Of a DNA stretch of 64,000 nt, positions 15,411 through 60,613 are shown in pieces. This DNA is from Escherichia phage MRostami-2023b, in the sequence record OQ031492; one strand, written 5' to 3'. A program made the translations under genes and the position numbers. Position 1 is the first letter of the stretch. Each line of letters opens with the position of its first letter. Below the pieces are notes generated by a model. The model made no database searches and was not told where the DNA came from. It saw nothing but the letters and a program-made list of their open reading frames with translations.

Positions 15411-18400
15411 CTAATGGCAACTGGCCCAGGAATTTCCCACGTCATATCCAGCAGTAAGCTGAACATTAAGATTGTAAAATTCTCCAGCCTTAGTAACAGC
15501 TAAAGCAGCAAGTTCACCTGCCCGACTATAAGCTGTAAACCATCCACCTTTGGGAGATTCATGAATGTTAGCCCAAATTTGCCCTGTCTCTTTTTCCTTA
15601 TTATGCTTCCATTCTTCGACTTTAGCAAGGCATTCTTTATCAATTTTCTTTTGTTCTTCAGGATCGTCTACTTTCTTCCAACCTAATGATTCAGGTGAAA
15701 ACCATTTGAATTCTACAAGGTTACGAGAAACTTCAAGCTGGGCTTCATCGTGGTATGCAATCATTTGTTGCACGAAGTCTTTATTCTTCCAGTCATCTTT
15801 AAAGAAGTCAACACTTAGCCCTTCTTCTTCGATCATGTCATCATAAATAACCATTGCACGTTTAGCACAGATAACCCCACCGCTTTGGAACAGAGAGTTA
15901 AGAATCGCGTGAGCAGAACGAGTAGGAACCTTACGACCGTCAATACCCAAAACATATTGTTTACCAGTCTTAACCCAAAAATCGTTTAAACGTTCTTTAA
16001 GACGCGCCAATGGGAATGCAGCTTCCCAGAAAGCATCAAACACCAATTGACCTGTAAACTTATCGCTACCAATTGTTTTAGCAACCTTGTCGGCTTGTGC
16101 ACCATAGGTAATACCATACTTAACAGATTTAGCAGGACTACGTTCAAATTTACGTCCAATAGTTTCAGTGATACGTTTTGCCATCATTGTGTGAACATCG
16201 TTAGGTTTCTCTAACAACAGAGCGTTACAATATTCGTGTGGCTCCGGCTCGTACCGCCAACAGTTNNNNNNNNNNNNNNNNNNNNNNNNNNNNNNNNNNN
16301 NNNNNNNNNNNNNNNNNNNNNNNNNNNNNNNNNNNNNNNNNNNNNNNNNNNNNNNNNNNNNNNNNNNNNNNNNNNNNNNNNNNNNNNNNNNNNNNNNNNN
16401 NNNNNNNNNNNNNNNNNNNNNNNNNNNNNNNNNNNNNNNNNNNNNNNNNNNNNNNNNNNNNNNNNNNNNNNNNNNNNNNNNNNNNNNNNNNNNNNNNNNN
16501 NNNNNNNNNNNNNNNNNNNNNNNNNNNNNNNNNNNNNNNNNNNNNNNNNNNNNNNNNNNNNNNNNNNNNNNNNNNNNNNNNNNNNNNNNNNNNNNNNNNN
16601 NNNNNNNNNNNNNNNNNNNNNNNNNNNNNNNNNNNNNNNNNNNNNNNNNNNNNNNNNNNNNNNNNNNNNNNNNNNNNNNNNNNNNNNNNNNNNNNNNNNN
16701 NNNNNNNNNNNNNNNNNNNNNNNNNNNNNNNNNNNNNNNNNNNNNNNNNNNNNNNNNNNNNNNNNNNNNNNNNNNNNNNNNNNNNNNNNNNNNNNNNNNN
16801 NNNNNNNNNNNNNNNNNNNNNNNNNNNNNNNNNNNNNNNNNNNNNNNNNNNNNNNNNNNNNNNNNNNNNNNNNNNNNNNNNNNNNNNNNNNNNNNNNNNN
16901 NNNNNNNNNNNNNNNNNNNNNNNNNNNNNNNNNNNNNNNNNNNNNNNNNNNNNNNNNNNNNNNNNNNNNNNNNNNNNNNNNNNNNNATCGCCAAACAGTA
17001 GTGTGATTCAATTTTTGCTTCCAAAGAGTCGAAGTCGTAGCCGATCTGGAAGTATTTAGGAACTTCTACACCAAACAAGTTACGCATCTCCCATCCAAAC
17101 AAAGATGTGACACGAGGAATATTAGCTACAGATCTATGCTTCATACGAGAGGTTGCAGCATCACATGTAGCGGCTGGGGTAGGAATACGCCCATCCGCCC
17201 TTACTGCGGCTAAGAAACCTTTGTCATATTCTTGATCTTCCTCATCTTCTTCCCAATCAGCACCACCGCCTAAAATAGAGTTTCTACGATGCTTATACGT
17301 TAAGTATTCTACAATCTGTGTAGCATAAGGGAATTTCTCACCTAAAGCTTGCAGGTTAGGACAGATTTCTTTTTCCTGACCTTTGGTAAAACATGGGTTA
17401 GTCAATACTTTAAGACCGCGACCCTTACCTTTTGCTATACGCTCTTGAATCTTCCTTTCCAAGGTTTCCGGTGTGCACTCCAGATGATCACAACGGTCCT
17501 GACAAAAATTAGAAGATAGAGTTTGCTCAACGTAAGCTCGAATACCTTTCTGAAGTTCTTCCTCGCTCTTTTTAATCTTGGTGCCAGATTTAAGAGTCAA
17601 GTCTTTATCTTTATATTCAGACGGTACCCAACCTAATCCTACAAGCCAGTTTTTAATATGGGTTGTATCGTTCAATGTTGCAGGGATGTTAGGATCACAC
17701 AGAGGCTCATCTGCTGCAACTGGCAGTTTCCACTCTTTCCCCAACATAACTAACCACCAATCGCCATCCCTCTCTTCCAAATGACCATCATGTTTCTTAG
17801 CAAAATTGATCATATGGTTAGTTGGCTCTAAGTTCTTTTTAATTTGCAACTTAGGTGGAATAAAAGCTTTAAGATAACCTTTTGTTGCTGGTTTAGGTGG
17901 CAAAATAGGCTCAACGAGTAAACGAAGACGCTCCATTTCTGCATCCAAAAAAGCAAGGTTCTCTTCTGCTTGTTTCATGTTAAAAGCAAACCCACGGTGT
18001 TCCTGGCGTGTAATAATGTCTGCTACACGTTGTTCAAGTTCAAATGGACCTTCCCATTTATCATAATCACCCCATTCTTCCATAAGGTAATTATATACGC
18101 TCGTATTGGCTTTGTTGTCATAGATACAGTAATAAAGCATATCCGCAGCAAAAGTCTTAAATCGATCTTCTTCTGGAATCTCTTTACGGAAATCTATTTT
18201 TACATCACCACCTGCTTTTCGAGAAAGTGCTGCCAAGCTATGTCCTGATTTGCCCTCAATCTTTCGATCTGGGTTTAACACTTTACTCAAAATCAAGGAG
18301 TCAATAAGTTTTACCTTATTTTTGCCCCACGTATTATATTTAACACTGTAATCTAATCCATAAAACAGTTTTGTAGCCAACCAGTCGTAGTTGATACCGT

Positions 18401-29718: not shown

Positions 29719-29915
29719 TACTCCTCCTCCTCATTGAAGTCAATATCTGCAAGGAGTTCGAATTTACGGAAGTTACGACAACCTTCATAAATATAACAAT
29801 CACGACAAACTGCTAGAACACTTGGGGGATATATGCCTCCCATCGGTGCGAATCGTTTTTCGTCATCATAACGGACACCAATGTCTTCATCAATTATATA
29901 GATACGGATTCTCAT
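29718..29915 (-). CDS. Hypothetical small protein
   Basis: 65 aa, overlaps neighbours by 1-4 nt. Confidence 0.35.
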   Translation of the reverse strand: MRIRIYIIDEDIGVRYDDEKRFAPMGGIYPPSVLAVCRDCYIYEGCRNFRKFELLADIDFNEEEE

Positions 29916-31024
29916 TTACCAAGCCCTCGTTTCACAGCAGCTACCATCCCGTCTTCCAGAGATTGAACTTCATTAATATAATCAACACGAGCAGCACGGG
30001 CTTCCGTATTGATGCGGTTAGTTTCTTCCAACATCTTAACCAAGTTTTCCTGATCGTGACGCAGAGTTTCAATATCCAACACTTGACGGTTAGCCAGTGC
30101 TGCTGCTTCGATCTGATTCTGTGTGGCAAGATCGCTACCCAGTTTAATTGCCAGGTTAAATTCATCAAGAACGTTATTCTGCGTCTCTGCTGCTTTCATT
30201 TGACGTAAGCTCTCGATATACATTGAGAAGTTAGCAGAGTAAGCAGGAATAACATTATTTACTATGTTACGCGCAGATCGCATTAAGCTTGCAGAAACTT
30301 TTTGCATACCTTGTACACGCGGTCCCATTTGGACACACAGTAGGCGCAATGCTTTTAAATCTGCAATACGAATCTCCAGAAGATCCAAAGTATCTCGGAT
30401 CACTTGTCGCTGTTCTACTGCATCTTCTGGAAGAGCAGCCAAAGCTTGTTCTTCTTTTTCATAGGTTGCTGTTAGAAGCTGCATATCTCGGTTCAAACTT
30501 GCAGCATATTGTCCAATAGCTTGATGTAGCTTTTCAAGATATACCAAGGAATCTTCTTCTTTGCGAATATCCATTTGAAGGTTCTTTACCAACTCTTCAA
30601 TACGGTTATTAACATTATCAAACTCCCCAAACAGATCTTCTTTCATACCCATAACTTTTTTAATGAGTTTAGTAATACCCTTGCTTTGTTTAATAGAGTT
30701 TGGATCAAGTTGTTTTGCCTGTTTAATCAAAGCTGTGAGTCGTTCACTCATCTGATCGCCTTGATTACTACGTTGATGTTTTAATACCTCGGCATTCAAG
30801 GAACGCAAGGTTGTTCCTGCCTCTGCCCCAATCTCTTCAATCTCTTGTCGGGTCATAGAAGGCAAAACTGGAACTTCTTGCGGTGCCGCTGGTGCATAAA
30901 CAGGACTGGCATCTAACACGCTTGGAGCGAATACAGATTTACTTGCATCGGTTGTTGCAGCAAATACGCTCATTTCAGGCTTCTTCTGACCACCAGTAGC
31001 TGCTTTTAAAAATGGACTTGTCAT
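29912..31024 (-). CDS. TelA-like (toxic anion resistance / KlaA family) protein
   Basis: 370 aa, alpha-helical composition; size and Ter-gene context; by-eye only. Confidence 0.4.
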   Translation of the reverse strand: MTSPFLKAATGGQKKPEMSVFAATTDASKSVFAPSVLDASPVYAPAAPQEVPVLPSMTRQEIEEIGAEAGTTLRSLNAEVLKHQRSNQGDQMSERLTALIKQAKQLDPNSIKQSKGITKLIKKVMGMKEDLFGEFDNVNNRIEELVKNLQMDIRKEEDSLVYLEKLHQAIGQYAASLNRDMQLLTATYEKEEQALAALPEDAVEQRQVIRDTLDLLEIRIADLKALRLLCVQMGPRVQGMQKVSASLMRSARNIVNNVIPAYSANFSMYIESLRQMKAAETQNNVLDEFNLAIKLGSDLATQNQIEAAALANRQVLDIETLRHDQENLVKMLEETNRINTEARAARVDYINEVQSLEDGMVAAVKRGLGK

Positions 31025-31611
31025 TCTTCATTCTCCTCTTCTGCATCTCTTATATATGGTGAAACACCGTACTCTTTAGCTACTTTAACCCAATCGTCCC
31101 ATTTATACAACCATAATTTTCCTTCGGTCCCTTCTTTATCTGATTTCAACCACATATTAGGTTGCTTACCTGGGTGCATGCGATTAGGTTTACGATTATA
31201 ACCTCTAACACATCTTGTCGCAAACCTATCTACCAGAACAAGAACATATTTATATTCGTGGTTCAACGGCTCTTTGGAAGTGGCTTTAGGATTAGCCCCT
31301 AATTCTGCTGCCAGTTTTTGCCAATGAGCACCGTGCCTACTAAACTTACCCATACAACCATCAATAGCATGAGCAATTTCGTGCTTCATTGTATCCACGA
31401 TCATATCTCTTGTGGAGTTCTTATGCAAGTGCCAATTTACAACAACAATTTTATCTCGGTAGTTGCACCAACCGAAAGAGTTATTCACTTTGTTTCTAAC
31501 ACAAGCTTTATATCCTGCTTCACGTAACATGTTGTAGTAAACAGGAAAATCTTCTTTTATTTCCTGCATCACTTCCCACCACAAGAGTTGCAAGTCTCTC
31601 TCGGTATACAT
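31021..31611 (-). CDS. SprT-like zinc metalloprotease domain protein
   Basis: HEIAHAI (HExxH) followed by SRHGAHWQKLAAELG as in SprT-like domains. Confidence 0.55.
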   Translation of the reverse strand: MYTERDLQLLWWEVMQEIKEDFPVYYNMLREAGYKACVRNKVNNSFGWCNYRDKIVVVNWHLHKNSTRDMIVDTMKHEIAHAIDGCMGKFSRHGAHWQKLAAELGANPKATSKEPLNHEYKYVLVLVDRFATRCVRGYNRKPNRMHPGKQPNMWLKSDKEGTEGKLWLYKWDDWVKVAKEYGVSPYIRDAEEENEE

Positions 31612-31614
31612 AAC

Positions 31615-32208
31615 TTACACCTTAAAAGTGAAATGCGTGGTCGTGGCTTCAAAATCAGGGCCAGATAAACGTGCACTGAAATCTGAAATATTTGTAATTA
31701 AAAAGCTTTTATGCATACCTAACACAGCCACGCTTTCAATATCTTCTACTAACATTTCAATCATGTTAGAAACATGGCTGAACGTAGAGTTTTGTTTTTT
31801 GATGGTGTAGAAAGAAAGATTCCCACCTGCTGTATAAGATACCTCTTCAAAATCTTTAATCGTATATTGTGTACCATCAGTAAAGAAAATGGTAGCTTTA
31901 TTAGTAGCACGTTTCTTGTTTTTTGGTCCTTTTTTACGTTTACTGCGAGTAGGCAAACCGTTTGGGAACACCGTAGCTACAAATTCTTCAGGGGAAACCT
32001 CCTTACCGAAATCATAATCGTAAGAAACAGCGTCTATACACTCGTCGTCTTCATTTTTAAAATAATGAAAATAGGGCCAATTTGAGAGATTATCGAGCAT
32101 CTTATGCGCATCCACAACAGAGAACGTATCCCTCAAAGCACGTGTGATTTGCAAAGCATTAGGCAAACTTTTAACACCTGTAATGGAAGTACGAATAGAA
32201 ATTGTCAT
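31615..32208 (-). CDS. Hypothetical protein
   Basis: 197 aa ORF. Confidence 0.4.
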   Translation of the reverse strand: MTISIRTSITGVKSLPNALQITRALRDTFSVVDAHKMLDNLSNWPYFHYFKNEDDECIDAVSYDYDFGKEVSPEEFVATVFPNGLPTRSKRKKGPKNKKRATNKATIFFTDGTQYTIKDFEEVSYTAGGNLSFYTIKKQNSTFSHVSNMIEMLVEDIESVAVLGMHKSFLITNISDFSARLSGPDFEATTTHFTFKV

Positions 32209-32222
32209 TGTTTTTCTCCTTA

Positions 32223-32660
32223 TTAACGTCGCTTGCTACGAGATGAACTCTTTTTACTTAAAGGGCTATTGTAAGATTTACGAGTTGTATAGCTACTATT
32301 TGTTTTAAAAGTTTGTCTCGGCTTTTCATAAGTTTTTATCTCTTGTTTAGGCTTACCATAAAAATTAGTTTTCGGTTTAGGTGTATTATAATGCTTATTA
32401 ATAATCGTTCTGTTATCGTTATAATCCCCACTGCTACGATTACTACCACCACTCATCATATGCCCTAACAACATACCTGTAGCAAACTCACCAACACCGC
32501 TACTACTAGAACCGCCACCATTGTTGATAATAGTTGTATCTCCGTCAGATCCTTGTTGAGCGTATTGTTGAGGAGGTTGTTGGTATTGTGCAGGATTTGT
32601 TTCATCCTCGCAAGCTGTTAAAAAGATACAACCAATTAAAATCAGGGCTAGTTTTTTCAT
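32223..32660 (-). CDS. Lipoprotein
   Basis: Start at MKKLALILIGCIFLTAC (lipobox LTAC) after RBS aggaaa; Gly/Ser-rich. Confidence 0.5.
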   Translation of the reverse strand: MKKLALILIGCIFLTACEDETNPAQYQQPPQQYAQQGSDGDTTIINNGGGSSSSGVGEFATGMLLGHMMSGGSNRSSGDYNDNRTIINKHYNTPKPKTNFYGKPKQEIKTYEKPRQTFKTNSSYTTRKSYNSPLSKKSSSRSKRR

Positions 32661-32847
32661 ATTTGCTTTCCTCATTTTGACTATTAATACATCTGTGTTT
32701 GAAATCTCCAGAGAAGCAATAAAGTTGCTCTCCATCTCGGTATAAACTCACTTTACTGCCGTTGATTACGCTTGTCAATACAAAAATTACAACAAACAAC
32801 CCTATTGCAAAACAAATATTTTCAAACACAACCAACAAGTATTTCAT
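32602..32847 (-). CDS. Putative small membrane protein (overlaps lipoprotein start)
   Basis: 81 aa, hydrophobic segment, RBS gaggt. Confidence 0.3.
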   Translation of the reverse strand: MKYLLVVFENICFAIGLFVVIFVLTSVINGSKVSLYRDGEQLYCFSGDFKHRCINSQNEESKYEKTSPDFNWLYLFNSLRG

Positions 32848-33194
32848 TTTAAAAATACCTCATCATCAGTCTCATTATCCCAGAAGAACAAATCCCAACC
32901 ATTCGGATCATTCCATTTGGCTGCTGGAGAAGTCCATATTTGTTCGATATCAATATTCAAAACTTCACCGTTTCGTTTTGAAACAGCTTTAGTTAATTCC
33001 CAACGAGATACAGGCTCTACTTCCCCTGAACCACTCCCACAACAAGCTACCACGTTAGGAGGCAAATTAATTGGATCTTTGGTCACGATCATAACGCTTA
33101 CCCCAGGGTAAACTTTTGAAAGATAATCTAAAACGTAATCCACATCACCAGATAAATCCCAAACAAGTTCTTGAATTTCATCAAAATTATTCAT
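32844..33194 (-). CDS. Hypothetical acidic protein
   Basis: 116 aa ORF. Confidence 0.4.
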   Translation of the reverse strand: MNNFDEIQELVWDLSGDVDYVLDYLSKVYPGVSVMIVTKDPINLPPNVVACCGSGSGEVEPVSRWELTKAVSKRNGEVLNIDIEQIWTSPAAKWNDPNGWDLFFWDNETDDEVFLK

Positions 33195-33212
33195 AAGTCT
33201 CTCCTATAAAAT

Positions 33213-33230
33213 AGCCTCCCGAAGGAGGCT
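33213..33230 (-). terminator. Hairpin (terminator-like) after TerC
   Basis: agcctcc-cgaa-ggaggct; U-rich on minus strand. Confidence 0.45.
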
Positions 33231-33236
33231 CATCTA

Positions 33237-34211
33237 TTAAACAGCAGCTTCTTCTTTTTCAGGGAAGATAAAGCTTGCAATAACACCAAGAGCTAATGTG
33301 CCTAGAACAATCATCAGGCTTACGTTAGGGGAAATATCATGCGGGAGGAATGACCACTTGGCATGAAGTGTTTCACCGAACGGGTGATACATAAGTTTAG
33401 CACCAACAAACACCAGAACCACAGCAACAGCTTTCTCTAAGTGAACCAGATATTTCACAGCTACACTTAACACAAAGAAAAGTGCACGTAAACCAAGAAC
33501 AGCCATCAGCATTGCAGAATAAACTAGCAGAGGTTCTTGTGTCACACCGATCACAGCCGGAACTGAATCAAAAGAGAAGACAATATCTGTAAGCTCAATA
33601 ACAAACACACAAAGAATAGCAGGAGTTGCATATTTAATACCATTCTTAATGGTGATGAACTTTTCACCATCCAGTGCATTGTGCACAGGCAGAACTTTAC
33701 CTACTAAACGAACAGCCCAATGCTTAGAGTAATCAATATCCTCTTCTTCGTCACCACCTTTGATGATAGCCACGGCAGACCAAGCTACAATCAAACCGAA
33801 CAACACTTGGACCGACCAATGAAGGTTAAACAAAGCGGTCCCTGCTGCAACAAAAATACCTCGGAAGACAATGGCTCCTGCAATCCCCCAAAGTAAAATC
33901 TTATGTTGGAGATGTGTGCTCTTAATTCCAAAGCTTGCAAAAATTGCCATGAACACCATCAGGTTATCTACAGAAAGACTCTTTTCCAACACATAGCCAC
34001 TTAGGAAAAGCGCGGCAAACTCTTTACCATGTTCTACCCAAATGAATGCGTAATATCCTAAAGCTAAAGCAATCCAAAAAACAGACCAAAGCAAAGCAGA
34101 TTTAATTCCAATTTCTTTATTCTCTTTGTGACCAAAGAAATCAATACCAATAGACAATGCTAAAATACCAACTAAAACAACTACATCAATAATTGGGAAA
34201 CCAAGTTGCAT
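33237..34211 (-). CDS. TerC-family integral membrane protein
   Basis: 324 aa multi-TM protein with EKSLSVDN signature typical of TerC/Alx family. Confidence 0.7.
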   Translation of the reverse strand: MQLGFPIIDVVVLVGILALSIGIDFFGHKENKEIGIKSALLWSVFWIALALGYYAFIWVEHGKEFAALFLSGYVLEKSLSVDNLMVFMAIFASFGIKSTHLQHKILLWGIAGAIVFRGIFVAAGTALFNLHWSVQVLFGLIVAWSAVAIIKGGDEEEDIDYSKHWAVRLVGKVLPVHNALDGEKFITIKNGIKYATPAILCVFVIELTDIVFSFDSVPAVIGVTQEPLLVYSAMLMAVLGLRALFFVLSVAVKYLVHLEKAVAVVLVFVGAKLMYHPFGETLHAKWSFLPHDISPNVSLMIVLGTLALGVIASFIFPEKEEAAV

Positions 34212-34228
34212 TCTTTTCTCCTCTCTTT

Positions 34229-34288
34229 GCGGGGAACTATTCCCCGCTTCATGTGATATATCTTACTCTTTTTAAGAACTATGTCAAC
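34229..34288 (-). promoter_or_regulatory. Promoter plus leader hairpin of the same class as the 55.8-62.4 kb array, upstream of TerC
   Basis: Minus strand reads TTGACA-N17-TAAGAT-atatcac-…GCGGGGAAtagTTCCCCGC then RBS and ATG. Confidence 0.5.
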
Positions 34289-34290
34289 AC

Positions 34291-34512
34291 TTATTTTGTT
34301 GAATGAGAGGAAAAGATTCCTCGTAATACAGCCAGAATAAACGAAACACAAACCACGGTCCAGAAGGTTACTGGGACAGTGATATCTGCATGACCCATAA
34401 CTTCAGCAACATAGTTGTAAGCCAGCAACAGTAACCAAGCTGGAATCAAACTAAGCATAAAAGCAATAACAAAAAAGCTTACCACTGCAACAATACCTGC
34501 AAAAACACCCAT
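34291..34512 (-). CDS. Small membrane protein
   Basis: 73 aa, two hydrophobic helices. Confidence 0.4.
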   Translation of the reverse strand: MGVFAGIVAVVSFFVIAFMLSLIPAWLLLLAYNYVAEVMGHADITVPVTFWTVVCVSFILAVLRGIFSSHSTK

Positions 34513-34524
34513 ACTAATCTCCTC

Positions 34525-34998
34525 TTAAAGTTTATAAATAGTCACATCGTGACCTGTTTTTACTAAAGTTTCTTCAATCATCACTTGGATGATAGCCCAA
34601 TTACCTCCAGCATATCCAGCGCCAATCATAGGTAAGCCGATCTTACATTTTTGGTCACGGAGAAGCAAATCGTTAGCCATAGCTATTAGTGCATCGTAAA
34701 GTGCATCATAGTCCAACTGACGACCTTTAGCATTGTATCCGTAACGGTATTGCCCGTATAGATTATATACCAAAGGGTCTGATTGTTCGTCTGGCACCCC
34801 TAAACTAAAACAACCTAGTTTACTTTGATCACCAGCCATTGTGTCTAAGTCTGCTGCATATGCGTAAGGAAATGCTTGTTTGATTTGTGGGGCAATACCT
34901 GCCCCCATATTACACATACAGTTGCAACAATGAGCAATAACAGTTACTTCACCTGCTTTAGCGGCATCAATAAGATTACCTGTTTTCATTTTAAGCAT
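34525..34998 (-). CDS. Macro-domain (ADP-ribose binding/processing) protein
   Basis: Start set at MLKMKTG after RBS; VIAHCCNCMCNMGAGIA…LPMIGAGYAGGNW pattern. Confidence 0.55.
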   Translation of the reverse strand: MLKMKTGNLIDAAKAGEVTVIAHCCNCMCNMGAGIAPQIKQAFPYAYAADLDTMAGDQSKLGCFSLGVPDEQSDPLVYNLYGQYRYGYNAKGRQLDYDALYDALIAMANDLLLRDQKCKIGLPMIGAGYAGGNWAIIQVMIEETLVKTGHDVTIYKL

Positions 34999-35011
34999 TT
35001 TTAGCTCCTTA

Positions 35012-35839
35012 TTACAGAATGTGTTGTTTTGTGTAACGATCCAAGAATTCAAAGTTTTCAGCATACTTTGAAATTCGGTTGTAACCTTCTCCCAAGCATC
35101 CAAAGAAAAGTTGCTCTACATAGTAATGTGGCAATTGGCTAAGAATGATTTTGAAGTCTTCATGATTTTGGCCCATAAGATACTTAATAGGACGAACAAG
35201 ACACTGTGCATCACGTTCTTCATTAATCATTTTAACAAACGCTTCTGGTGTATTAATGTAGTTAAAATTCAGTTTAGCTTCGGTATCTGCTTGATTACCT
35301 TCGTATTTTGCAAAATACAAGAAGTAAACATCATTTTTAACTTGATTTTCATCAAGGATCTCAATCAGTTTGTCTTCATGCGTTCCAGTGATATTTACAT
35401 CATCAATGAATACAAGCTTCTTATCACCCCAGAATTCTTTGTTGCAGTAGAATGTATCCCCATCAATAAGTTTCTTACGACTAGCTTTATCCAAGAAGCC
35501 ATAATCGTTAATATAGCTAACTTTACGATGAATAATATCCAGTTCTGCTGAACGACCTTGATCATATTGTGCTTGCAACATATTAAAGTAATTAATAAAA
35601 TGATCTGTCATCATTGTTGCAGCATTATGCACATGGTTGTAAGGAGAAGGAATGATAACAAATTGTTCCCCAATATGTTTCATTGCCACTTGAGCAAAAA
35701 ACTGAAGTGCCAATTCTTTACCCATACGACGCGCGGCTTGGTTACTACCAAATTTCAATTTTGAATAATCTTGGATATCAAAAGTAGCAGTTTCCAGGTC
35801 ATCAAATTTATTTGCAAAAATTTGAGTTTGATTACGCAT
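35012..35839 (-). CDS. Type I phosphoribosyltransferase-like protein
   Basis: PRPP-binding motif KLVFIDDVNITGTHE. Confidence 0.5.
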   Translation of the reverse strand: MRNQTQIFANKFDDLETATFDIQDYSKLKFGSNQAARRMGKELALQFFAQVAMKHIGEQFVIIPSPYNHVHNAATMMTDHFINYFNMLQAQYDQGRSAELDIIHRKVSYINDYGFLDKASRKKLIDGDTFYCNKEFWGDKKLVFIDDVNITGTHEDKLIEILDENQVKNDVYFLYFAKYEGNQADTEAKLNFNYINTPEAFVKMINEERDAQCLVRPIKYLMGQNHEDFKIILSQLPHYYVEQLFFGCLGEGYNRISKYAENFEFLDRYTKQHIL

Positions 35840-45454: not shown

Positions 45455-45762
45455 TACATCTCCTCGTCGGACTTCAAGGCTTTAGAGAATACTACGTTAA
45501 ACGTTTCACCGCAACCATTATTAACATAATACATGATGTAATTGTCATCTTCGTCTACAGGCGCACGATACTCCAGTTCATAACTGTATAAATTAGAATT
45601 ACTTGTGCAACCTTGTGGATACCAAAAGTAGAGTTCATCCCCAGATTCTACCCATTTAAGACCAGTCCGATCTTCAAATACTAATGTAGATGGATTTTCT
45701 GAATCTTTTACAGCTTCTTCGTAATACTGGTGCACCGTAACTGCTAATGATAATGTACTCAT
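45454..45762 (-). CDS. Hypothetical protein
   Basis: ATG start one codon inside the listed GTG start. Confidence 0.4.
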   Translation of the reverse strand: MSTLSLAVTVHQYYEEAVKDSENPSTLVFEDRTGLKWVESGDELYFWYPQGCTSNSNLYSYELEYRAPVDEDDNYIMYYVNNGCGETFNVVFSKALKSDEEM

Positions 45763-52282: not shown

Positions 52283-53191
52283 NNNNNNNNNNNNNNNNNN
52301 NNNNNNNNNNNNNNNNNNNNNNNNNNNNNNNNNNNNNNNNNNNNNNNNNNNNNNNNNNNNNNNNNNNNNNNNNNNNNNNNNNNNNNNNNNNNNNNNNNNN
52401 NNNNNNNNNNNNNNNNNNNNNNNNNNNNNNNNNNNNNNNNNNNNNNNNNNNNNNNNNNNNNNNNNNNNNNNNNNNNNNNNNNNNNNNNNNNNNNNNNNNN
52501 NNNNNNNNNNNNNNNNNNNNNNNNNNNNNNNNNNNNNNNNNNNNNNNNNNNNNNNNNNNNNNNNNNNNNNNNNNNNNNNNNNNNNNNNNNNNNNNNNNNN
52601 NNNNNNNNNNNNNNNNNNNNNNNNNNNNNNNNNNNNNNNNNNNNNNNNNNNNNNNNNNNNNNNNNNNNNNNNNNNNNNNNNNNNNNNNNNNNNNNNNNNN
52701 NNNNNNNNNNNNNNNNNNNNNNNNNNNNNNNNNNNNNNNNNNNNNNNNNNNNNNNNNNNNNNNNNNNNNNNNNNNNNNNNNNNNNNNNNNNNNNNNNNNN
52801 NNNNNNNNNNNNNNNNNNNNNNNNNNNNNNNNNNNNNNNNNNNNNNNNNNNNNNNNNNNNNNNNNNNNNNNNNNNNNNNNNNNNNNNNNNNNNNNNNNNN
52901 NNNNNNNNNNNNNNNNNNNNNNNNNNNNNNNNNNNNNNNNNNNNNNNNNNNNNNNNNNNNNNNNNNNNNNNNNNNNNNNNNNNNNNNNNNNNNNNNNNNN
53001 NNNNNNNNNNNNNNNNNNNNNNNNNNNNNNNNNNNNNNNNNNNNNNNNNNNNNNNNNNNNNNNNNNNNNNNNNNNNNNNNNNNNNNNNNNNNNNNNNNNN
53101 NNNNNNNNNNNNNNNNNNNNNNNNNNNNNNNNNNNNNNNNNNNNNNNNNNNNNNNNNNNNNNNNNNNNNNNNNNNNNNNNNNNNNNNNNNN
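52283..53191. other. Masked sequence (909 N)
   Basis: N run; content unknowable. Confidence 0.9.
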
Positions 53192-54614: not shown

Positions 54615-54857
54615 TATTTTAACTTTTTTCATTTTTAGAACAAAGGTGTCACTTTGTAGCACAGAAATAAGGCTCCTACAGCACCGTAGAGAGCCTGTTA
54701 TTTTGTCCTATACAAACCCTTATCTTTTTCAGTTTGCATCACTAGGATTCGATCTAAGTGGGTTCCTGAAGGTCTACTAATAAGATTAAAGGTTATCTCA
54801 AATTCCCATTACCTATTATCTCAAAAATCCCTCAAATTATTTAAACTTTTTAAGAAT

Positions 54858-54895
54858 TTACAAAAGTGAAAGTTGAAAACCAAAATTTAAAGTTT
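54858..54895. repeat. A-rich direct repeat copy 1 in non-coding control region
   Basis: tacaaaagtgaaagttgaaaaccaaaatttaaagttta; near-copies at 54998-55035 and partial at 54937-54966. Confidence 0.5.
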
Positions 54896-54997
54896 AGGAA
54901 AATTATCTTAAAATGTTAGATACAAAACAAAACTCAAAAGTCAAGGAAAATTTTAAAAATTTTGCGCGCCCACAGTATTTAAAGTTTTTTTGCTTTT

Positions 54998-55035
54998 ACA
55001 AAAATGAAAGTACAAAAGCAAAATTTAAAGTTTAC
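54998..55035. repeat. A-rich direct repeat copy 2
   Basis: tacaaaaatgaaagtacaaaagcaaaatttaaagttta. Confidence 0.5.
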
Positions 55036-55039
55036 AAAA

Positions 55040-55175
55040 ATTTTTATGCAGGTGAGAATGAGAAGAGTTCTCATATGGAAATGCAAATGATAATGATTCG
55101 CATTTAAGTTTATAAATGAGATTGATTCTTATTTAATAAGGTAAATGATAACCATTCTCATTTAGAGAATGACGC
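55040..55175. promoter_or_regulatory. Cluster of palindromic operator-like sites
   Basis: gagaatgagaagagttctcat; aaatgc-aaatgataatgatt-cgcattt (Fur-box-like GATAATGAT core); cattctcatttagagaatg. Confidence 0.4.
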
Positions 55176-55420
55176 GCAGGGGCGGTGTTTGTCTCGCGCT
55201 CCCGTGTCCCCTCGCCATGTAATAAGAATAACAGATCCAGCCAGGAAAGCAAGCGATTATTTTATCTTTACATTTCTTTACAAATATATAGCGCCCAGCC
55301 TACCGGCGATCAACCTTCCAACCAGCGCCCTGGTATGTTAGCCCCGCCTTTACGCCGTGGGGTGGCGCTTCCTCTTCTGTATGTAAAACAGTATAAGCCC
55401 TATCCCTGGGCTTGTCAAGA

Positions 55421-55687
55421 TTATTTTTTGTTTTCTTGCCAGGTCAGGACACCTAGCCAAAAATGAATATCACCTTTTCCCCAATGTGGTATATTGCTTT
55501 CNNNNNNNNNACTGCAAGCCCATAGATAACCATTTGCGAACGTATCAAAATGATCTATATCCTCGACCTTATAATCTGATAGGTTGAGAACGGTTTCAAC
55601 CTTTAAGCCCGTTGCGCTTGCTACCTGGTGCACCGTGCCGCCTTGCCAGCCCAATGAGTGCATAAGGTGTAATGTAGTATTTGTCAT
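55421..55687 (-). CDS. Hypothetical protein divergent from the early-gene array (8 N inside)
   Basis: 88 aa ORF; possible TTGCTA-17-TATCAT promoter upstream. Confidence 0.3.
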   Translation of the reverse strand: MTNTTLHLMHSLGWQGGTVHQVASATGLKVETVLNLSDYKVEDIDHFDTFANGYLWACSXXXESNIPHWGKGDIHFWLGVLTWQENKK

Positions 55688-55796
55688 GGTATCGCCCTTT
55701 CTTTGATGTGCGCCCTGGTTGGCGCGGTAGAAAGATGATAGCCCTTTCTTTTATATATAGCAAGCAAAAAGAAAATAAAAAAGATTGAAAAAGTGA

Positions 55797-55854
55797 TTGA
55801 CGTTCGCCAGGTGGCGGCATAATATTTACCACGTAGGGCGGCAATGGTGCCGCT
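55797..55854 (+). promoter_or_regulatory. Sigma70-type promoter (TTGACG-17-TAATAT) plus conserved leader hairpin
   Basis: -10 followed by ttaccacGTAGGGCGGCAatggTGCCGC. Confidence 0.6.
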
Positions 55855-55874
55855 CATTATTTGGAGTTAAAATC

Positions 55875-56072
55875 ATGGCAACATTGCACATTGTGGCGAA
55901 AGCTGGACAAATAAACGTGGTAGTAAACGGTTTTACTGAGTTCAGTCATCCCCAGGATGATCATGAAACGGTTTTATCTTTCATTGATTCACTGTTAGAA
56001 ATGGGAGTAATTACAGAAGACCAGCACGCTACAAAATGCAAACGCGTTAATCAAATTGCAGGGATAGAATAA
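55875..56072 (+). CDS. Small early-type protein
   Basis: 65 aa from ATG after ggagtt RBS. Confidence 0.4.
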   Translation: MATLHIVAKAGQINVVVNGFTEFSHPQDDHETVLSFIDSLLEMGVITEDQHATKCKRVNQIAGIE

Positions 56073-56078
56073 AAAGTA

Positions 56079-56137
56079 TTGACAACAAACAACAACCTGA
56101 TAAGATGTATCACATAGGGCGGGAAGTGGTTTCCCGC
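56079..56137 (+). promoter_or_regulatory. Promoter (TTGACA-16-TAAGAT) plus leader hairpin
   Basis: gtatcacATAGGGCGGGAAgtggtTTCCCGC. Confidence 0.55.
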
Positions 56138-56162
56138 TCGTAACAGAAGAGAGATTATCATC

Positions 56163-56435
56163 ATGGCATCATATAGCGCAACAATGATCGTAGCTGGCAC
56201 CACTGGTAAACCTATGTGCGGTGGCGGATCTTTCGCAAATATCAACATTGACGGGCGTTTATCCCTGGACGCAGCGATCACCGTGGCGCGGGAAACATTT
56301 AAGAAAGAATGTAAATTCAATAAACAAGATTATCTCGGTTTTGCTATTGAAAAAACCGCGCGCTTTGTTGATTATAAAAGCCCGAAAATGGTTGACACTA
56401 CATTAAAAGCGCAAGATGTAGCGTTTTTGCTTTAA
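56163..56435 (+). CDS. Small early-type protein
   Basis: 90 aa, RBS agaagagag. Confidence 0.4.
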   Translation: MASYSATMIVAGTTGKPMCGGGSFANINIDGRLSLDAAITVARETFKKECKFNKQDYLGFAIEKTARFVDYKSPKMVDTTLKAQDVAFLL

Positions 56436-56438
56436 GGC

Positions 56439-56494
56439 TTGACATTAACGACTAATTTGTTAATATGTTACATAAAGCGGGAATAGTTCCCGCT
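56439..56494 (+). promoter_or_regulatory. Promoter (TTGACA-16-TAATAT) plus leader hairpin
   Basis: AGCGGGAAtagTTCCCGCT after -10. Confidence 0.55.
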
Positions 56495-56511
56495 ATTTGT
56501 AAGGTGGTAGA

Positions 56512-56769
56512 ATGTTTTACATCAAATTAAAAGGTCACGTGATCGCGTTCAAAGATAACGCTTTTTACAGATTAGCAAAATATGCGTTAATACATCCCCA
56601 CTATGTTTATATAAGGGGGCGTGATGAAATAAATATCTTTGATCAAACAACATGCGAGAACATCGAGATCCGCAAGGTTGGCGTACGTGATTATCGTACA
56701 TCTTTCTACCCTTGCAAGGATTCAGCAAGTCTTTTCAAAGTATGCCAATTGTTGAAAAAAGGTGGTTAA
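56512..56769 (+). CDS. Small early-type protein
   Basis: 85 aa, RBS aaggtgg. Confidence 0.4.
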   Translation: MFYIKLKGHVIAFKDNAFYRLAKYALIHPHYVYIRGRDEINIFDQTTCENIEIRKVGVRDYRTSFYPCKDSASLFKVCQLLKKGG

Positions 56770-56770
56770 T

Positions 56771-57328
56771 ATGGGCCGCGAATATGTGATCCAGTCTTGG
56801 GTAAAACATGAAGCAGATGATCCGCGCATCATTCCCGATCATCTTATCGATGAATCCACGGGATATAGCGGTGAGCAAATAGGTAACAGATTAGCACGTA
56901 GTAACGGCAACGTAAAAGCACGTTATGTGCGCCCTGGCTGGCTGGCAAATGGTAACGCTGATTTATCCAGTGCGGAAGATGCGAGCGACGGCGCGAAAGA
57001 TAATCCTTTGTACAAAGTTGATCCGGCTTTTCGTGTCCTGGATGAATACCCCAGCAAGATAGCGGCGCTCGATCAGGCCCTGGAAAGTAAGCGCATCACC
57101 TGGACCGCTTACAACATGGCAAAAAACGTACTTGATGGTAAATTGATTCAAGCTGAAAGAAAATTAGCCAAAATTGCAGCTATAGCCCAGGAGGAAGACG
57201 AGGAGACAACGGAAGAGGAAGAGTACGAAGAGATCCCGCCGTTGTTGTGTGTTGATGCTTTTCCTGATTATCAGCCGACAGAGGAAGAAAAAAGGATCGC
57301 ACTAGAAAACTTTGAAAATAGTCTTTGA
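56771..57328 (+). CDS. Acidic hypothetical protein
   Basis: 185 aa from MGREYVIQ; Glu-rich C-terminal tract. Confidence 0.4.
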   Translation: MGREYVIQSWVKHEADDPRIIPDHLIDESTGYSGEQIGNRLARSNGNVKARYVRPGWLANGNADLSSAEDASDGAKDNPLYKVDPAFRVLDEYPSKIAALDQALESKRITWTAYNMAKNVLDGKLIQAERKLAKIAAIAQEEDEETTEEEEYEEIPPLLCVDAFPDYQPTEEEKRIALENFENSL

Positions 57329-57382
57329 CATATCGCCGCCACTGGCATAATATTTACCACGTAGGGCGGCAATGGTGCCGCT
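57325..57382 (+). promoter_or_regulatory. Promoter (TTGACA-17-TAATAT) plus leader hairpin
   Basis: Near-identical to 55797-55854 element. Confidence 0.55.
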
Positions 57383-57410
57383 CATAGTAAAATTATGCAA
57401 GAGGTTTGCA

Positions 57411-57506
57411 ATGATTAATAAAGAAAATAGCTTGACGGTTGGAACGATTAACGCTATCATTTTCGCCGTTCCATTTTGGGTTGTAGTAGCGGCTATTATT
57501 TTCTAA
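57411..57506 (+). CDS. Tiny hydrophobic peptide (31 aa)
   Basis: MINKENSLTVGTINAIIFAVPFWVVVAAIIF; own promoter-hairpin. Confidence 0.3.
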   Translation: MINKENSLTVGTINAIIFAVPFWVVVAAIIF

Positions 57507-57515
57507 AAAATATTC

Positions 57516-57576
57516 TTGACAACGTTTTTTAATCTGATAAGATGTATCACATAGGGCGGCGGAATACTTCCCCGCC
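57516..57576 (+). promoter_or_regulatory. Promoter (TTGACA-16-TAAGAT) plus leader hairpin
   Basis: gtatcacATAGGGCGGCGGAAtacTTCCCCGCC. Confidence 0.55.
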
Positions 57577-57597
57577 AAAACAAAAAAGGGTAACACA

Positions 57598-57960
57598 ATG
57601 AGCAAGCAAATCAGTACTATCATGTTTAATCTGGTATCTTTCCGCGATGATATGAAAAATTTACCACGTGAAACGGTTGATATTCATGTTTCAGCTTATC
57701 GCGCCCTTATTGACATGTTACCGCTAAAACGTGATCAACATGCCGCTAATATGATGCTTAATGCTATGCTTAAAAAGATGATTCAAACTGATCTCACCCT
57801 GGCATATGAGTATCAAGGGCGCTTATATGCAACTTACAACAAAACGGTACCTGGTTTGGGAAGTACCGAAGAGTTGCACGGCTTAAACCTGGATCAAAAC
57901 ACTTGGGATAGTATGCGCCGCGTTATGGTATGGGCCGAAAGCGGTAAAATTTACGAATAA
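57598..57960 (+). CDS. Small early-type protein
   Basis: 120 aa. Confidence 0.4.
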   Translation: MSKQISTIMFNLVSFRDDMKNLPRETVDIHVSAYRALIDMLPLKRDQHAANMMLNAMLKKMIQTDLTLAYEYQGRLYATYNKTVPGLGSTEELHGLNLDQNTWDSMRRVMVWAESGKIYE

Positions 57961-57966
57961 AAACGG

Positions 57967-58023
57967 TTGACACTGTTTAAACTTCTGGTATAGTTTATCA
58001 CGTAGGGCGGCAATGGTGCCGCC
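57967..58023 (+). promoter_or_regulatory. Promoter (TTGACA-16-TATAGT) plus leader hairpin
   Basis: ttatcacGTAGGGCGGCAatggTGCCGCC. Confidence 0.55.
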
Positions 58024-58043
58024 AACAATAAAAGGTTAACACC

Positions 58044-58409
58044 ATGGCTATTAATATCAATGTTTCCGCTTATGCTACCCTGGCTAACACGGCTAAAATC
58101 GAATTATCCAGCATTGAGGCGGTGCATATTAGCGCCCGTCGCTGGTTTCAAAAGTCTTATGGTAATACTTATTTCTCTTTGATGGTTGACGTTGAGATCG
58201 GCGGTAAATTGATCGAAGTGGTTAACGTTCCGTTTCAATATGGCTATGGTGATCATTTTGATACCGTCGCCCTGGAAGAATTTAGCAAGGTTATCAACCT
58301 TGAGGGCAAGGAATTTTCACGCGGCGCGTATCTTTCCCGTTTTTGCCGTGACAATGGGATCACTGTATACAGTCATGCAAGCGATGTTAAACGTAAAAAA
58401 GATCTATAA
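58044..58409 (+). CDS. Small early-type protein
   Basis: 121 aa. Confidence 0.4.
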   Translation: MAININVSAYATLANTAKIELSSIEAVHISARRWFQKSYGNTYFSLMVDVEIGGKLIEVVNVPFQYGYGDHFDTVALEEFSKVINLEGKEFSRGAYLSRFCRDNGITVYSHASDVKRKKDL

Positions 58410-58415
58410 AAAGCA

Positions 58416-58475
58416 TTGACAGCACGAATAAAAAGCGTAAAATGTTTTATATCGAGAGCGGGAACACTTCCCGCC
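58416..58475 (+). promoter_or_regulatory. Promoter (TTGACA-16-TAAAAT) plus leader hairpin
   Basis: GCGGGAAcacTTCCCGC after -10. Confidence 0.5.
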
Positions 58476-58498
58476 TCACTGAAAAAGAGAGAAAAATC

Positions 58499-58738
58499 AT
58501 GGCTAAATCTAAAATGTACAACGGTCACAAAAACAAAACTCATTGGAATGTAAGCCTTTGGATTAATAACGATGAATCGTTATACCGGTTGGCCCAAGAT
58601 TTTATTAACGCTAATGCTAATCGTAATGATGCGGCGCGGGATATGATGCTTTTTCTGGAACAAACTGGACAAGATAAAACGCCAGACGGTTTCAAATATA
58701 GCACTACTGCGATCCGTGCCGCGATGGTTGGAATGTAA
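58499..58738 (+). CDS. Small early-type protein
   Basis: 79 aa from MAKSKMY. Confidence 0.4.
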   Translation: MAKSKMYNGHKNKTHWNVSLWINNDESLYRLAQDFINANANRNDAARDMMLFLEQTGQDKTPDGFKYSTTAIRAAMVGM

Positions 58739-58746
58739 TAAAAACA

Positions 58747-58805
58747 GTTGACAACGTTTAAAATTAGTGTAAGATGTATCACATAGGGCGGGAAGTGGTT
58801 TCCCG
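58747..58805 (+). promoter_or_regulatory. Promoter (TTGACA-16-TAAGAT) plus leader hairpin
   Basis: Near-identical to 56079-56137 element. Confidence 0.55.
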
Positions 58806-58828
58806 CCAAAACAGAGAGATTAAAGATT

Positions 58829-59056
58829 ATGGCTATCAATATTGTTCGCGTATCCGGCACCGTTGGCACTTCACAGGTTATTGCAGTCGTCACNNNNNNN
58901 NNNNNNNNNNNNNNNNNNNNNNCCTTGAATAAGTGGGCTATTGCTAATTTTGGGGAATATGCAAGCGTCGAGTACATCGAATCCTACCAGGTGCCAACCA
59001 TCAGCCTAACCGATCTCAACGTTGATCGCCTGTTATGCCTGGATGAATTAATCTGA
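58829..59056 (+). CDS. Small early-type protein (39 N inside)
   Basis: 75 codons incl. masked part. Confidence 0.3.
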   Translation: MAINIVRVSGTVGTSQVIAVVXXXXXXXXXXXLNKWAIANFGEYASVEYIESYQVPTISLTDLNVDRLLCLDELI

Positions 59057-59065
59057 AAAAGATTG

Positions 59066-59122
59066 TTGACACGGGAAAGAAAAAGAGTAAACTATATTAC
59101 GTAGGGCGGCAATGGTGCCGCT
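59066..59122 (+). promoter_or_regulatory. Promoter (TTGACA-16-TAAACT) plus leader hairpin
   Basis: atattacGTAGGGCGGCAatggTGCCGC. Confidence 0.5.
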
Positions 59123-59143
59123 CACAACAGAAGAGAGATTATC

Positions 59144-59339
59144 ATGNNNNNNNNNNNNNNNNNNNNNNNNNNNNNNNNNNNNNNNNNNNNNNNNNNNNNN
59201 NNNNNNNNNNNNNNNNNNNNNNNNNNNNNNNNNNNNNNNNNNNNNNNNNNNNNNNNNNNNNNNNNNNNNNNNNNNNNNNNNNNNNNNNNNNNNNNNNNNN
59301 NNNNNNNNNNNNNNNNNNNNNNNNNTTATAAAATAAAGC
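59144..59339 (+). CDS. Small ORF, start only; remainder masked
   Basis: ATG after agaagagagattatc RBS; 179 N follow. Confidence 0.2.
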
Positions 59340-59401
59340 TTGACAATAATTTGTTATCTAGTAAAGTGTACGACATAGGGCGGGGCAATAAGGCAACGCC
59401 C
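59340..59401 (+). promoter_or_regulatory. Promoter (TTGACA-16-TAAAGT) plus leader hairpin variant
   Basis: gtacgacATAGGGCGGGG…CGCCC. Confidence 0.45.
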
Positions 59402-59419
59402 ACTAATGAGGGTAAAATC

Positions 59420-59524
59420 ATGTTAGAGAAAATTTTCACGGTTGCAGTGGTTGGCCTGGCGTTATCGGTTGGAGTGGTTGCAACTATGGCTAACATGATC
59501 CTATCTTCCCACGGTATCGGCTAA
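59420..59524 (+). CDS. Tiny hydrophobic peptide (34 aa)
   Basis: MLEKIFTVAVVGLALSVGVVATMANMILSSHGIG. Confidence 0.3.
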   Translation: MLEKIFTVAVVGLALSVGVVATMANMILSSHGIG

Positions 59525-59534
59525 GGTGAAACAA

Positions 59535-59750
59535 ATGATCACGAATAAGACAGGTAAAACGGAATTTTTACGCGGCTTGCAAGTTGGTAAACCTGAGATC
59601 TGGCATTGTACTAAATCCGCACACAATGAAATGAAAGACTTTACCGCTAGTTTACAACGTGTTAAAATATCTATTACGCAGAAAAAAGCCTTGATAGTTG
59701 CAGAAAACGAGATCCCGCAAACCATTATTATTGTCGAGCGTACAGCATGA
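59535..59750 (+). CDS. Small early-type protein
   Basis: Start at ATG after aaggtg. Confidence 0.35.
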   Translation: MITNKTGKTEFLRGLQVGKPEIWHCTKSAHNEMKDFTASLQRVKISITQKKALIVAENEIPQTIIIVERTA

Positions 59751-60133
59751 AAACAGAAATCATTAACGAAATCATCAACGGCTATAAAGAAGCCTTTATT
59801 TTTGCTGAATCAGCAAGGGATCATGAAGGTAATTTTATTGATAACTTAGACGATTATGATTTTTCTCCTAGCGCGGACAAACGGATCGCCCAGGATGTAA
59901 CAGCCTTTATTAATGCTAATCTTGCCGCTATCTCTGAGGCAATGAGCGACGGCGCAACAGCCAACCAGATCGGCAATGATTTACATTTTACCCGTAACGG
60001 TCACGGCGTAGGCTTTTGGGATCGCCTTGAAATCTACACCACTAACACGGCGAACCGCCTAACCAATGCAGCTAAGTTTATGCCGAACGTGTCGGCTTAC
60101 ATTGGTGAAGATAATTTGATTTATATTGAATAA
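59747..60133 (+). CDS. Small early-type protein
   Basis: 128 aa, ATGA overlap. Confidence 0.4.
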   Translation: MKTEIINEIINGYKEAFIFAESARDHEGNFIDNLDDYDFSPSADKRIAQDVTAFINANLAAISEAMSDGATANQIGNDLHFTRNGHGVGFWDRLEIYTTNTANRLTNAAKFMPNVSAYIGEDNLIYIE

Positions 60134-60139
60134 AAAGTA

Positions 60140-60252
60140 TTGACACAGATCGCCAGTGTGATAATATTTACCACGTAGGGCGGCAATGGTGCCGCTGACA
60201 CAGATCGCCAGTGTGCTTATATTTAATGCGTAGGGCGGCAATGGTGCCGCCG
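60140..60252 (+). repeat. Tandem duplication of promoter plus leader hairpin unit (two ~56-bp copies)
   Basis: ttgacacagatcgccagtgtg…gtagggcggcaatggtgccgc followed by ctgacacagatcgccagtgtg…gtagggcggcaatggtgccgcc. Confidence 0.6.
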
Positions 60253-60593: not shown

Positions 60594-60613
60594 ACGTCAG
60601 AAAGGAAAAGATT

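Follow-up and report, generated by a model that had tools for sequence, protein, structure and literature searches.

A promoter and hairpin cassette upstream of a phage TerC gene and its likeness to a distant small-ORF array

Why should a single gene for a TerC-family membrane protein be preceded by a promoter and a hairpin that resemble those repeated in an array of small ORFs 20 kb away, on the opposite strand? We addressed this question in a 64,000-nucleotide stretch of Escherichia phage MRostami-2023b (sequence record OQ031492), which was analyzed as a whole and is called the window here. The initial annotation of this DNA had placed TerC, and possibly the Ter genes downstream of it, in the same regulon as the array. 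The region around the site is 97–99.8% identical to Phapecoctavirus genomes (e.g., PNJ1809-36, phAPEC8 and tuntematon), all of them myophages that infect E. coli and belong to the subfamily Stephanstirmvirinae.

Anatomy of the TerC leader and its gene

We read the leader directly on the minus strand, where the order of the parts is aacaaaaTAA gtg, TTGACA, spacer, TAAGAT, linker and hairpin. The A-rich tract aacaaaataa (34291–34300), which is UP-element-like, adjoins the −35 hexamer on its upstream side and contains the stop codon TAA of the upstream 73-aa ORF (34293–34291); in the array copies, ATAAAAA occupies this place. The −35 hexamer TTGACA (34282–34287) and the −10 hexamer TAAGAT (34260–34265), both also recovered by a promoter scan, are separated by a spacer of 16 nt (34281–34266). 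Thus, the initial annotation was correct about the hexamers but not about the spacer, which it had given as 17 nt. The −10 hexamer is followed by a 12-nt linker, atatcacatgaa (34248–34259), and by the hairpin GCGGGGAAtagTTCCCCGC (34229–34247), a perfect 8-bp stem with a 3-nt loop (GCGGGGAA-tag-TTCCCCGC) for which RNA folding gives −13.1 kcal/mol and a z score of −4.0. On the TerC strand the sequence 3' of the hairpin is AAAGAGAGG, without a U-tract, while on the opposite strand the hairpin is followed by TTCATGTGAT. The stretch from the hairpin to the ATG of TerC (34211) reads aaagaGAGGAGaaaaga, and the Shine-Dalgarno sequence GAGGAG (34218–34223), located 6 nt 5' of the ATG, is kept in all orthologues.

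Transcription usually starts 7 ± 1 nt past the −10 hexamer, with a preference for a pyrimidine-purine step. On the basis of this spacing and of the conserved C-purine step (cA or cG) in the linker, we infer that the TerC transcript starts at the A of the cA at 34252, the eighth nucleotide past the −10 hexamer. The transcript would then carry AUGAA-GCGGGG at its 5' end, with approximately 5 unpaired nucleotides before a hairpin at about +6 to +24. Array transcripts are predicted to carry (A/G)UAG-GGCGG, which would place their hairpin 3–5 nt from the 5' end across copies.

In E. coli, alx/TerC is controlled by the yybP-ykoY riboswitch. A search of the whole window with the Rfam covariance models at gathering thresholds gave no matches; when the region 34150–34330 was searched at E ≤ 1, the best hit had an E value of 0.97 (16 bits against a cut-off of 40 bits), and yybP-ykoY was not matched.

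The gene behind this leader (33237–34211, minus strand) encodes a TerC-family integral membrane protein of 324 aa (Pfam PF03741, E 4.7e-40), and its phAPEC8 counterpart, gp214, is labelled ‘integral membrane protein TerC’ in the record. Six nucleotides past the stop codon, a terminator scan located an intrinsic terminator, AGCCTCC-ttcg-GGAGGCT followed by ATTTTAT (33205–33230, minus strand; stem-loop 33230–33213), with a fold of −17 kcal/mol. This terminator is present in 8/8 orthologous loci, its stems varying; the same scan does not list the leader hairpin. In the minus-strand cluster, NrdD/NrdG, hydrolases, a PRTase and a Macro-like protein are encoded upstream of TerC, and three ORFs without Pfam match, a SprT-like protein and TelA downstream. 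TelA, 2.2 kb past the terminator, is the only other Ter-type gene in the window, where our Pfam search found nothing resembling TerD, TerB or TerZ. With a conserved terminator directly past the gene and a promoter and hairpin of its own, TerC would appear to be a self-contained promoter-hairpin-gene-terminator unit inside a long minus-strand operon. The position of this terminator, together with TelA as the sole and distant other Ter-type gene, contradicts the idea that downstream Ter genes are tied to the element.

Besides TerC, this Ter-associated neighbourhood (29912–35839, minus strand) comprises genes for a PRTase_3/ComF-like protein (35012–35839), a Macro-like protein (34525–35103), a SprT-like protein (31021–31611) and TelA (29912–31024), and genes for HAD and other hydrolases as well as NrdDG are located upstream of it. 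The neighbourhood resembles the Ter-linked nucleoside-metabolite modules that Anantharaman et al. reportedly described in 2012. The TerC body (33230–34111, minus strand) is 59–84% identical to that of tuntematon (L012), with both flanks at 97–100%. This difference represents an allele replacement with breakpoints at the conserved terminator on the 3' side and ~100 nt inside the gene on the 5' side, neither of which coincides with the promoter-hairpin element.

The small-ORF array and the spread of the element

Pattern scans located at least 12 promoter-hairpin elements before small ORFs on the plus strand (55797–60251), with −35 hexamers starting at 55797, 56079, 56439, 57325, 57516, 57967, 58416, 58748, 59066, 59340, 60140 and 60195; a thirteenth copy near 61500 is interrupted by an N-run. 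The elements lie 17–30 nt 5' of ORFs of roughly 60–130 aa and are composed of ATAAAAA, TTGACA, a spacer of 16–17 nt, TAAGAT or TAATAT, the linker (g)tatCAC(A/G)TAGG and a hairpin, which is GCGGCA-atgg-TGCCGC, GCGGGAA-(tag, cac or gtggt)-TTCCCGC or a bulged variant. In nearly all copies the distance from the −10 hexamer to the hairpin start is 11–13 nt, and from the outer GCGG to CCGC the hairpin measures 16, 17 or 19 nt overall among copies of one genome. The element at 56439–56494, to which the TerC leader had been described as nearly identical, carries the hairpin GCGGGAAtagTTCCCGC, that is, the TerC hairpin less one G-C pair. Over the 59 nt of the element, the identity between TerC and the array copies ranges from 56 to 74%, with 69% for 56439 and 74% for the closest copy, 58748, so that the near identity applies to the hairpin and not to the element as a whole. 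That both places carry the same element is correct as regards design and approximately correct as regards sequence.

We then asked how far these occurrences exceed chance. The element scans were performed with regular expressions and RNAfold; in the MAFFT alignments A1 and A3 the 3' arms were misplaced as a result of unequal stem lengths, and hence no covariance model was built. Sigma70-like hexamer pairs alone are at chance level in the window (32 sites vs 32.2 in shuffles). The hairpin pattern matched 4 times in the window, against 0.01 expected, and the composite of promoter and GC-rich hairpin occurred 12 times, against a mean of 0.07 and a maximum of 1 in 100 first-order Markov simulations. 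Both this excess and the direct reading bear out the promoter-hairpin element that had been reported 5' of TerC on the minus strand. The genome-wide motif scan that the initial annotation had suggested as a check likewise returned at least 12 array elements (55.8–60.3 kb, plus strand) and, as the only intergenic, co-oriented element outside the array, the copy at TerC; the complete phAPEC8 genome, too, has no other copy in such a position.

In that genome (147.7 kb), hairpins of the GCGG...CCGC type are found at 13 sites, of which 11 have a promoter and belong to the array, one is promoter-less but also in the array region, and one is at TerC. The phAPEC8 array spans the ends of the record. 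The outer GCGG...CCGC is invariant among the Phapecoctavirus copies, including the one at TerC. Further promoter and hairpin matches in the window (31318 and 45787 on the plus strand, 23069 and 11930 on the minus strand) have unrelated hairpins that are not of this array type; those at 23069 and 11930, being inside or antisense to long ORFs, were treated as chance.

Among relatives the array region is a mosaic, and in comparisons with tuntematon, ASO2A and phAPEC8 several indels have their breakpoints at or beside elements (58024–58051, 57479 and 58730–58748). At 60140–60251 (plus strand), two complete elements stand in tandem with a 55-nt period and no ORF between them, where tuntematon and phAPEC8 have a single element. 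Another difference concerns the ~180 nt at 59144–59329, which correspond in tuntematon (L002, 6417–10691) to ~4.1 kb with roughly a dozen small-ORF cassettes; the window junction of this difference is masked by an N-run. The window contains 11 N-runs (e.g., 16266–16986, 52283–53191, 59147–59325 and 61552–61825), two of which interrupt array cassettes. On either side of the array lie stretches of ~1.2 kb each without a convincing ORF (54615–55884 and 62820–64000), the second of which is AT-rich with many caac/caaa repeats.

A sequence search also found the array-type leader CACRTAGGGCGGCAAT(G/A)GTGCCGC, with promoter and hairpin, in three Vequintavirinae genomes, namely FV3 (L024, Vequintavirus; at 1508 and 1783), phiTE (L023, Certrevirus; at 1477) and SSBI34 (L025, genus absent from the record; at 1480 and 2630). 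Since the leader and its hairpin occur in these phages too, the cassette appears to be a feature of the whole rV5/phAPEC8 supergroup. For non-coding DNA, the conservation of this leader across two subfamilies is unusually high.

TerC leaders across lineages

To what extent is the likeness between TerC and the array a property of TerC leaders in general? We compared TerC orthologues with their flanks from IMG/VR (L007–L010) and GenBank (KP13-26, tuntematon, Justusliebigvirus PHB05 and phiWec181). All of them have a −35/−10 pair, a 7–8-bp hairpin located 8–12 nt past the −10 hexamer and then the ATG, which is separated from the hairpin by an A-rich spacer of about 17–20 nt with GGAG. The stems differ from one lineage to another: the window and tuntematon share GCGGGGAA/TTCCCCGC, phAPEC8 has GCGGGGA-gtggt-TCCCCGC, Justusliebigvirus GCGGAGG-attgt-CCTCCGC, L007 GGGAGAG-atagg-CTCTCCC, and L008 and KP13-26 AGAGGGAG-atagg-CTCCCTCT. 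The hairpins of the orthologues are followed by TTCAAAAG or ATTAAAG, with no U-tract.

In an alignment of 7 sequences with 5 distinct stems (A2), the 7 core pairs were 100% paired, and 5/7 had changed on both sides. The covariation score was 0.566, compared with 0.242 in shuffles (reached in 0/500), and slid registers scored at most 0.19. A hairpin at the same position with compensatory changes points to selection on structure at TerC itself. In this small sample the signal is clear and suggests that the structure of the hairpin, not its sequence, is selected at TerC, with the qualification that any selected DNA inverted repeat would also keep covariation.

The comparison with the array gave a different kind of information. 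In KP13-26, the array hairpins are of the GCGGGAA type and the TerC stem is unrelated to them; in the IMG/VR relatives with the KP13-26-type TerC hairpin, this hairpin occurs once per contig. In Phapecoctavirus, the TerC alleles differ by loop types that are also present in the array (AATAG vs AGTGG). As the KP13-26 TerC hairpin is unrelated to the KP13-26 array hairpins, the likeness in sequence that the Phapecoctavirus TerC element has to its array is lineage-specific; it stems from common descent or gene conversion and is no requirement of TerC regulation, and what TerC shares with the array is an architecture, not a recognition sequence. The proposed common regulon consequently holds in part: there is a common cis-design, which outside the array recurs as an intergenic, co-oriented copy at TerC alone, but a specific regulator shared by the two places finds no support, given the unrelated KP13-26 stem and promoters that are host sigma70 consensus.

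Proposed working of the cassette and competing readings

What, then, could the hairpin do? We hypothesize, with a probability of about 0.55, that in this phAPEC8-like (Stephanstirmvirinae) phage the TerC site works as a modular cassette for early gene expression, in which the transcribed hairpin acts as a 5' protective stem-loop. Such a cassette would combine a strong host-sigma70 promoter with an A-rich tract, a stable stem-loop in the first ~25 nt and an open, purine-rich ribosome-binding site. Host RNA polymerase would start about 7–8 nt past TAAGAT, and the nascent RNA would form the hairpin 3–5 nt from its 5' end. There, the hairpin would serve as a shield, hindering RppH as well as the 5'-end-dependent entry and scanning of RNase E, and would insulate the Shine-Dalgarno sequence from upstream sequence, yielding a stable and well-translated early message. 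At TerC the intrinsic terminator would close the cassette, making TerC an independently boosted unit, and the repeated ~60-nt elements of the array appear to be, in addition, recombination points for the gain and loss of cassettes. The start site, the action at the RNA level and the early timing are predictions from the sequence, and our literature search found no transcriptomes of Phapecoctavirus or Stephanstirmvirinae. The hairpin lengths of 16, 17 and 19 nt fit an RNA stem and argue against a rigid dimeric DNA operator. In a G-U strand-asymmetry test, meant to tell an RNA role from a DNA role, the sense RNA was the more stable one in 53/69 leaders; this count comes from copies that are not independent, and clear counter-examples occur, so that it did not decide between the two roles.

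A stable hairpin a few nucleotides from the 5' end, followed by an unstructured ribosome-binding site, is also characteristic of 5' stabilisers such as the ompA and papA 5' UTRs and the T7 phi10 leader of pET vectors. These need no specific sequence, with which the stem turnover among TerC orthologues agrees. In contrast to these classical cases, which they exceed, the cassettes studied here have 3–5 predicted unpaired 5' nucleotides, and their stabilising function is a proposal. Emory, Bouvet and Belasco reportedly described in 1992 a limit on the unpaired 5' nucleotides of classical stabilisers, and the predicted 3–5 nt (5 at TerC) lie at the upper limit. According to a review, base-paired 5' ends slow RNase E (PMC3997798), and a further study reports that sites 3' of a structured obstacle are shielded from RNase E that arrives by scanning from the 5' end (PMC11194081).

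The closest described system appears to be the promoter-early stem-loop (PeSL) cassette of the T4-like phages RB49/phi1, PST and nt-1 (Arbiol et al. 2010, PMC2839356; Comeau et al. 2014, PMC4122927), in which a strong sigma70 promoter and a stem-loop are repeated before ORFans in hyperplastic regions and mediate modular shuffling. The elements described here are likewise repeated composites of ~60–100 nt with an AT-rich tract, a sigma70-like promoter, a GC-rich stem-loop, a Shine-Dalgarno sequence and an ATG, and in both systems they precede small ORFans clustered in a plastic region; several of the indel breakpoints observed here coincide with elements. Near-consensus −35 and −10 hexamers with an AT-rich tract, a stable stem-loop within the repeat and many copies before small ORFs are all found in our sequence; the TerC copy is the exception to this setting, as it lies outside the plastic small-ORF region. 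The two systems also differ in geometry. In RB49/phi1 the stem-loop is mostly between the −35 and −10 hexamers or over the −10 and acts as a terminator (PMC2839356), whereas the phAPEC8-type hairpin is 3' of the −10, in its own transcript, and has no U-tract at TerC. The lineage, Stephanstirmvirinae/Vequintavirinae, is different as well. We would thus classify the TerC site as a PeSL-like cassette with variant geometry.

Could the hairpin nevertheless terminate or attenuate upstream transcription, so that the composite is a junction of terminator and promoter at which transcription is reset from one cassette to the next? In reporter assays, PeSL stem-loops are efficient terminators (PMC2839356), the ASO2A GenBank record labels the array hairpins as rho-independent terminators, U-rich runs follow some of them (TATTTGT after 56493; TCATTATTTGG after 55853), and promoter-less hairpins stand between array ORFs. 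Against this, the sequences past the hairpin at TerC and in the orthologues contain no U-tract in any case, and an efficient terminator located 3' of its own promoter would abort its own transcripts at about +25. Moreover, a textbook hairpin with a T-run is used at 33230–33205, where termination is evidently wanted. We therefore regard this reading as unlikely, and the TerC hairpin as an intrinsic terminator, with AAAGAGAGG behind it, was rejected for its missing U-tract.

Promoter-coupled terminators (Fletcher et al. 2026 preprint, 10.64898/2026.08.19.745784) also combine a stem-loop and a promoter in one short intergenic element between tandem genes. There, the stem serves as the −35, a T-tract precedes the −10, and 3' ends lie ~10 bp upstream of the start. 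This model was rejected because its parts stand in the opposite order: the terminator precedes or overlaps the promoter, the reverse of the TerC site. Another candidate was that the 3' arm sequesters the true Shine-Dalgarno sequence as an anti-SD. By eye, L007 and L008 agree with this idea, but the sequence of the window does not, and it was dropped.

Less probable than termination or attenuation is that a regulator encoded by the phage recognizes this site, with the inverted repeat as a DNA operator or the hairpin as the target of an RNA-binding repressor or nuclease. Such a regulator would turn all the elements off or on at once, and TerC would belong to a true regulon. The leader CACRTAGGGCGGCAAT(G/A)GTGCCGC is strikingly conserved in two subfamilies (FV3, phiTE and SSBI34), a finding that can also come from cassette exchange and gene conversion. 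The invariant outer GCGG...CCGC of the Phapecoctavirus copies, TerC included, would agree with such a site, and a position of +4 to +25 would suit a roadblock operator. However, copies from a single genome differ in the spacing of their half-sites (overall 16, 17 or 19 nt), the loops differ as well (TAG, GTGGT, ATGG and CAC), and in KP13-26 and the IMG/VR relatives the TerC hairpin has no sequence in common with the array hairpins and is unique in its contig. No candidate regulator was found.

A related reading, which we consider very doubtful, takes the hairpin and the conserved CACRTAGGGCGG leader as a recognition element for a phage or host factor across Stephanstirmvirinae and Vequintavirinae. 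The factor could be an RNA-binding shut-off or antitermination protein, or the nascent RNA itself could act as an element on RNA polymerase. If this were true, there would be a real post-initiation early regulon into which Phapecoctavirus TerC had been recruited.

It is highly improbable that the likeness has no function for TerC and is a relic of recombination or gene conversion (a moron-like insertion) with a passive hairpin. In favour of such a relic, the two Phapecoctavirus TerC alleles differ exactly by the array loop types, genomes that are near-identical elsewhere have had their TerC body swapped, and array breakpoints fall at elements. Against it, the position of the hairpin is kept in all lineages examined despite full stem turnover, with compensatory changes. 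Like the lambdoid morons, which are promoter-gene-terminator units, TerC has its own promoter and its own terminator in a larger operon; in contrast to them, TerC and its cassette seem to be ancestral to the subfamily and fixed in position, with no recent insertion.

Returning to the cassette with a protective hairpin, it would also make sense of existing annotation. In the phAPEC8 record (JX561091), the one record examined for regulatory annotation at the TerC site, the TerC promoter (121933–121971) is a ‘putative host dependent promoter determined with MEME’ and the 20-mers GTAGGGCGGCAATGGTGCCG, marked as ‘PHIRE promoter’, are the array hairpins. The two halves thus appear as two kinds of promoter, and the TerC hairpin is unmarked. 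In the ASO2A record, the hairpins called terminators are the same array hairpins and stand directly past promoters; neither record joins promoter and hairpin as one cassette. In the related Certrevirus phages, the small-ORF region is likewise where sigma70/UP promoters cluster, and a few copies lie near replication and nucleotide-metabolism genes (PMC7344957); the promoters are of the same type as here, and hairpins are absent from that description. The TerC promoter and hairpin are real but an ordinary phage design. Of the TerC element, one half, the promoter, already carries an annotation, and each half of the cassette type had been seen before under conflicting labels.

A single promoter and 5'-hairpin cassette would reconcile the labels ‘MEME promoter’, ‘PHIRE promoter’ and ‘terminator’, and it would be one used throughout the rV5/phAPEC8 supergroup of therapeutic-candidate coliphages. 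A host-RNAP promoter of its own hints that TerC, an auxiliary membrane protein of a metal/tellurite-resistance family, is made independently of its neighbours and probably early. The ~80-nt promoter-hairpin-RBS module, together with the UUCG terminator, could serve phage engineering; the current understanding of phage gene regulation is unchanged by the TerC cassette.

Promoter and hairpin also occur apart, as a sigma70 promoter without a hairpin (20042) and as promoter-less hairpins between array ORFs. These cases suggest that the two parts can work separately, and what the hairpin does may not concern the 5' end at all. The hairpin-less promoter, TTGACA-N17-TATACT (20042–20004, minus strand), precedes a 143-aa ORF that belongs to the replication cluster; this promoter lies directly 3' of a terminator, GGGCTTCGGCCC with a T-run, and is a MEME promoter in the phAPEC8 record. 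Two promoter-less hairpins with GNRA loops, GGGGCG-gcaa-CGCCCC (60579–60594) and GGGGCG-gtaa-CGCCCC (about 60858–60875), both on the plus strand, are located ~20–30 nt 5' of start codons of array ORFs. Beyond the window, at about 45636–45695 on the minus strand of phAPEC8, a promoter is followed by the polypurine/polypyrimidine hairpin TGGGAGGA-ggtgag-TCCTCCCA, which lies between the thymidylate synthase gene and gp112 and resembles the KP13-26 TerC-type hairpins.
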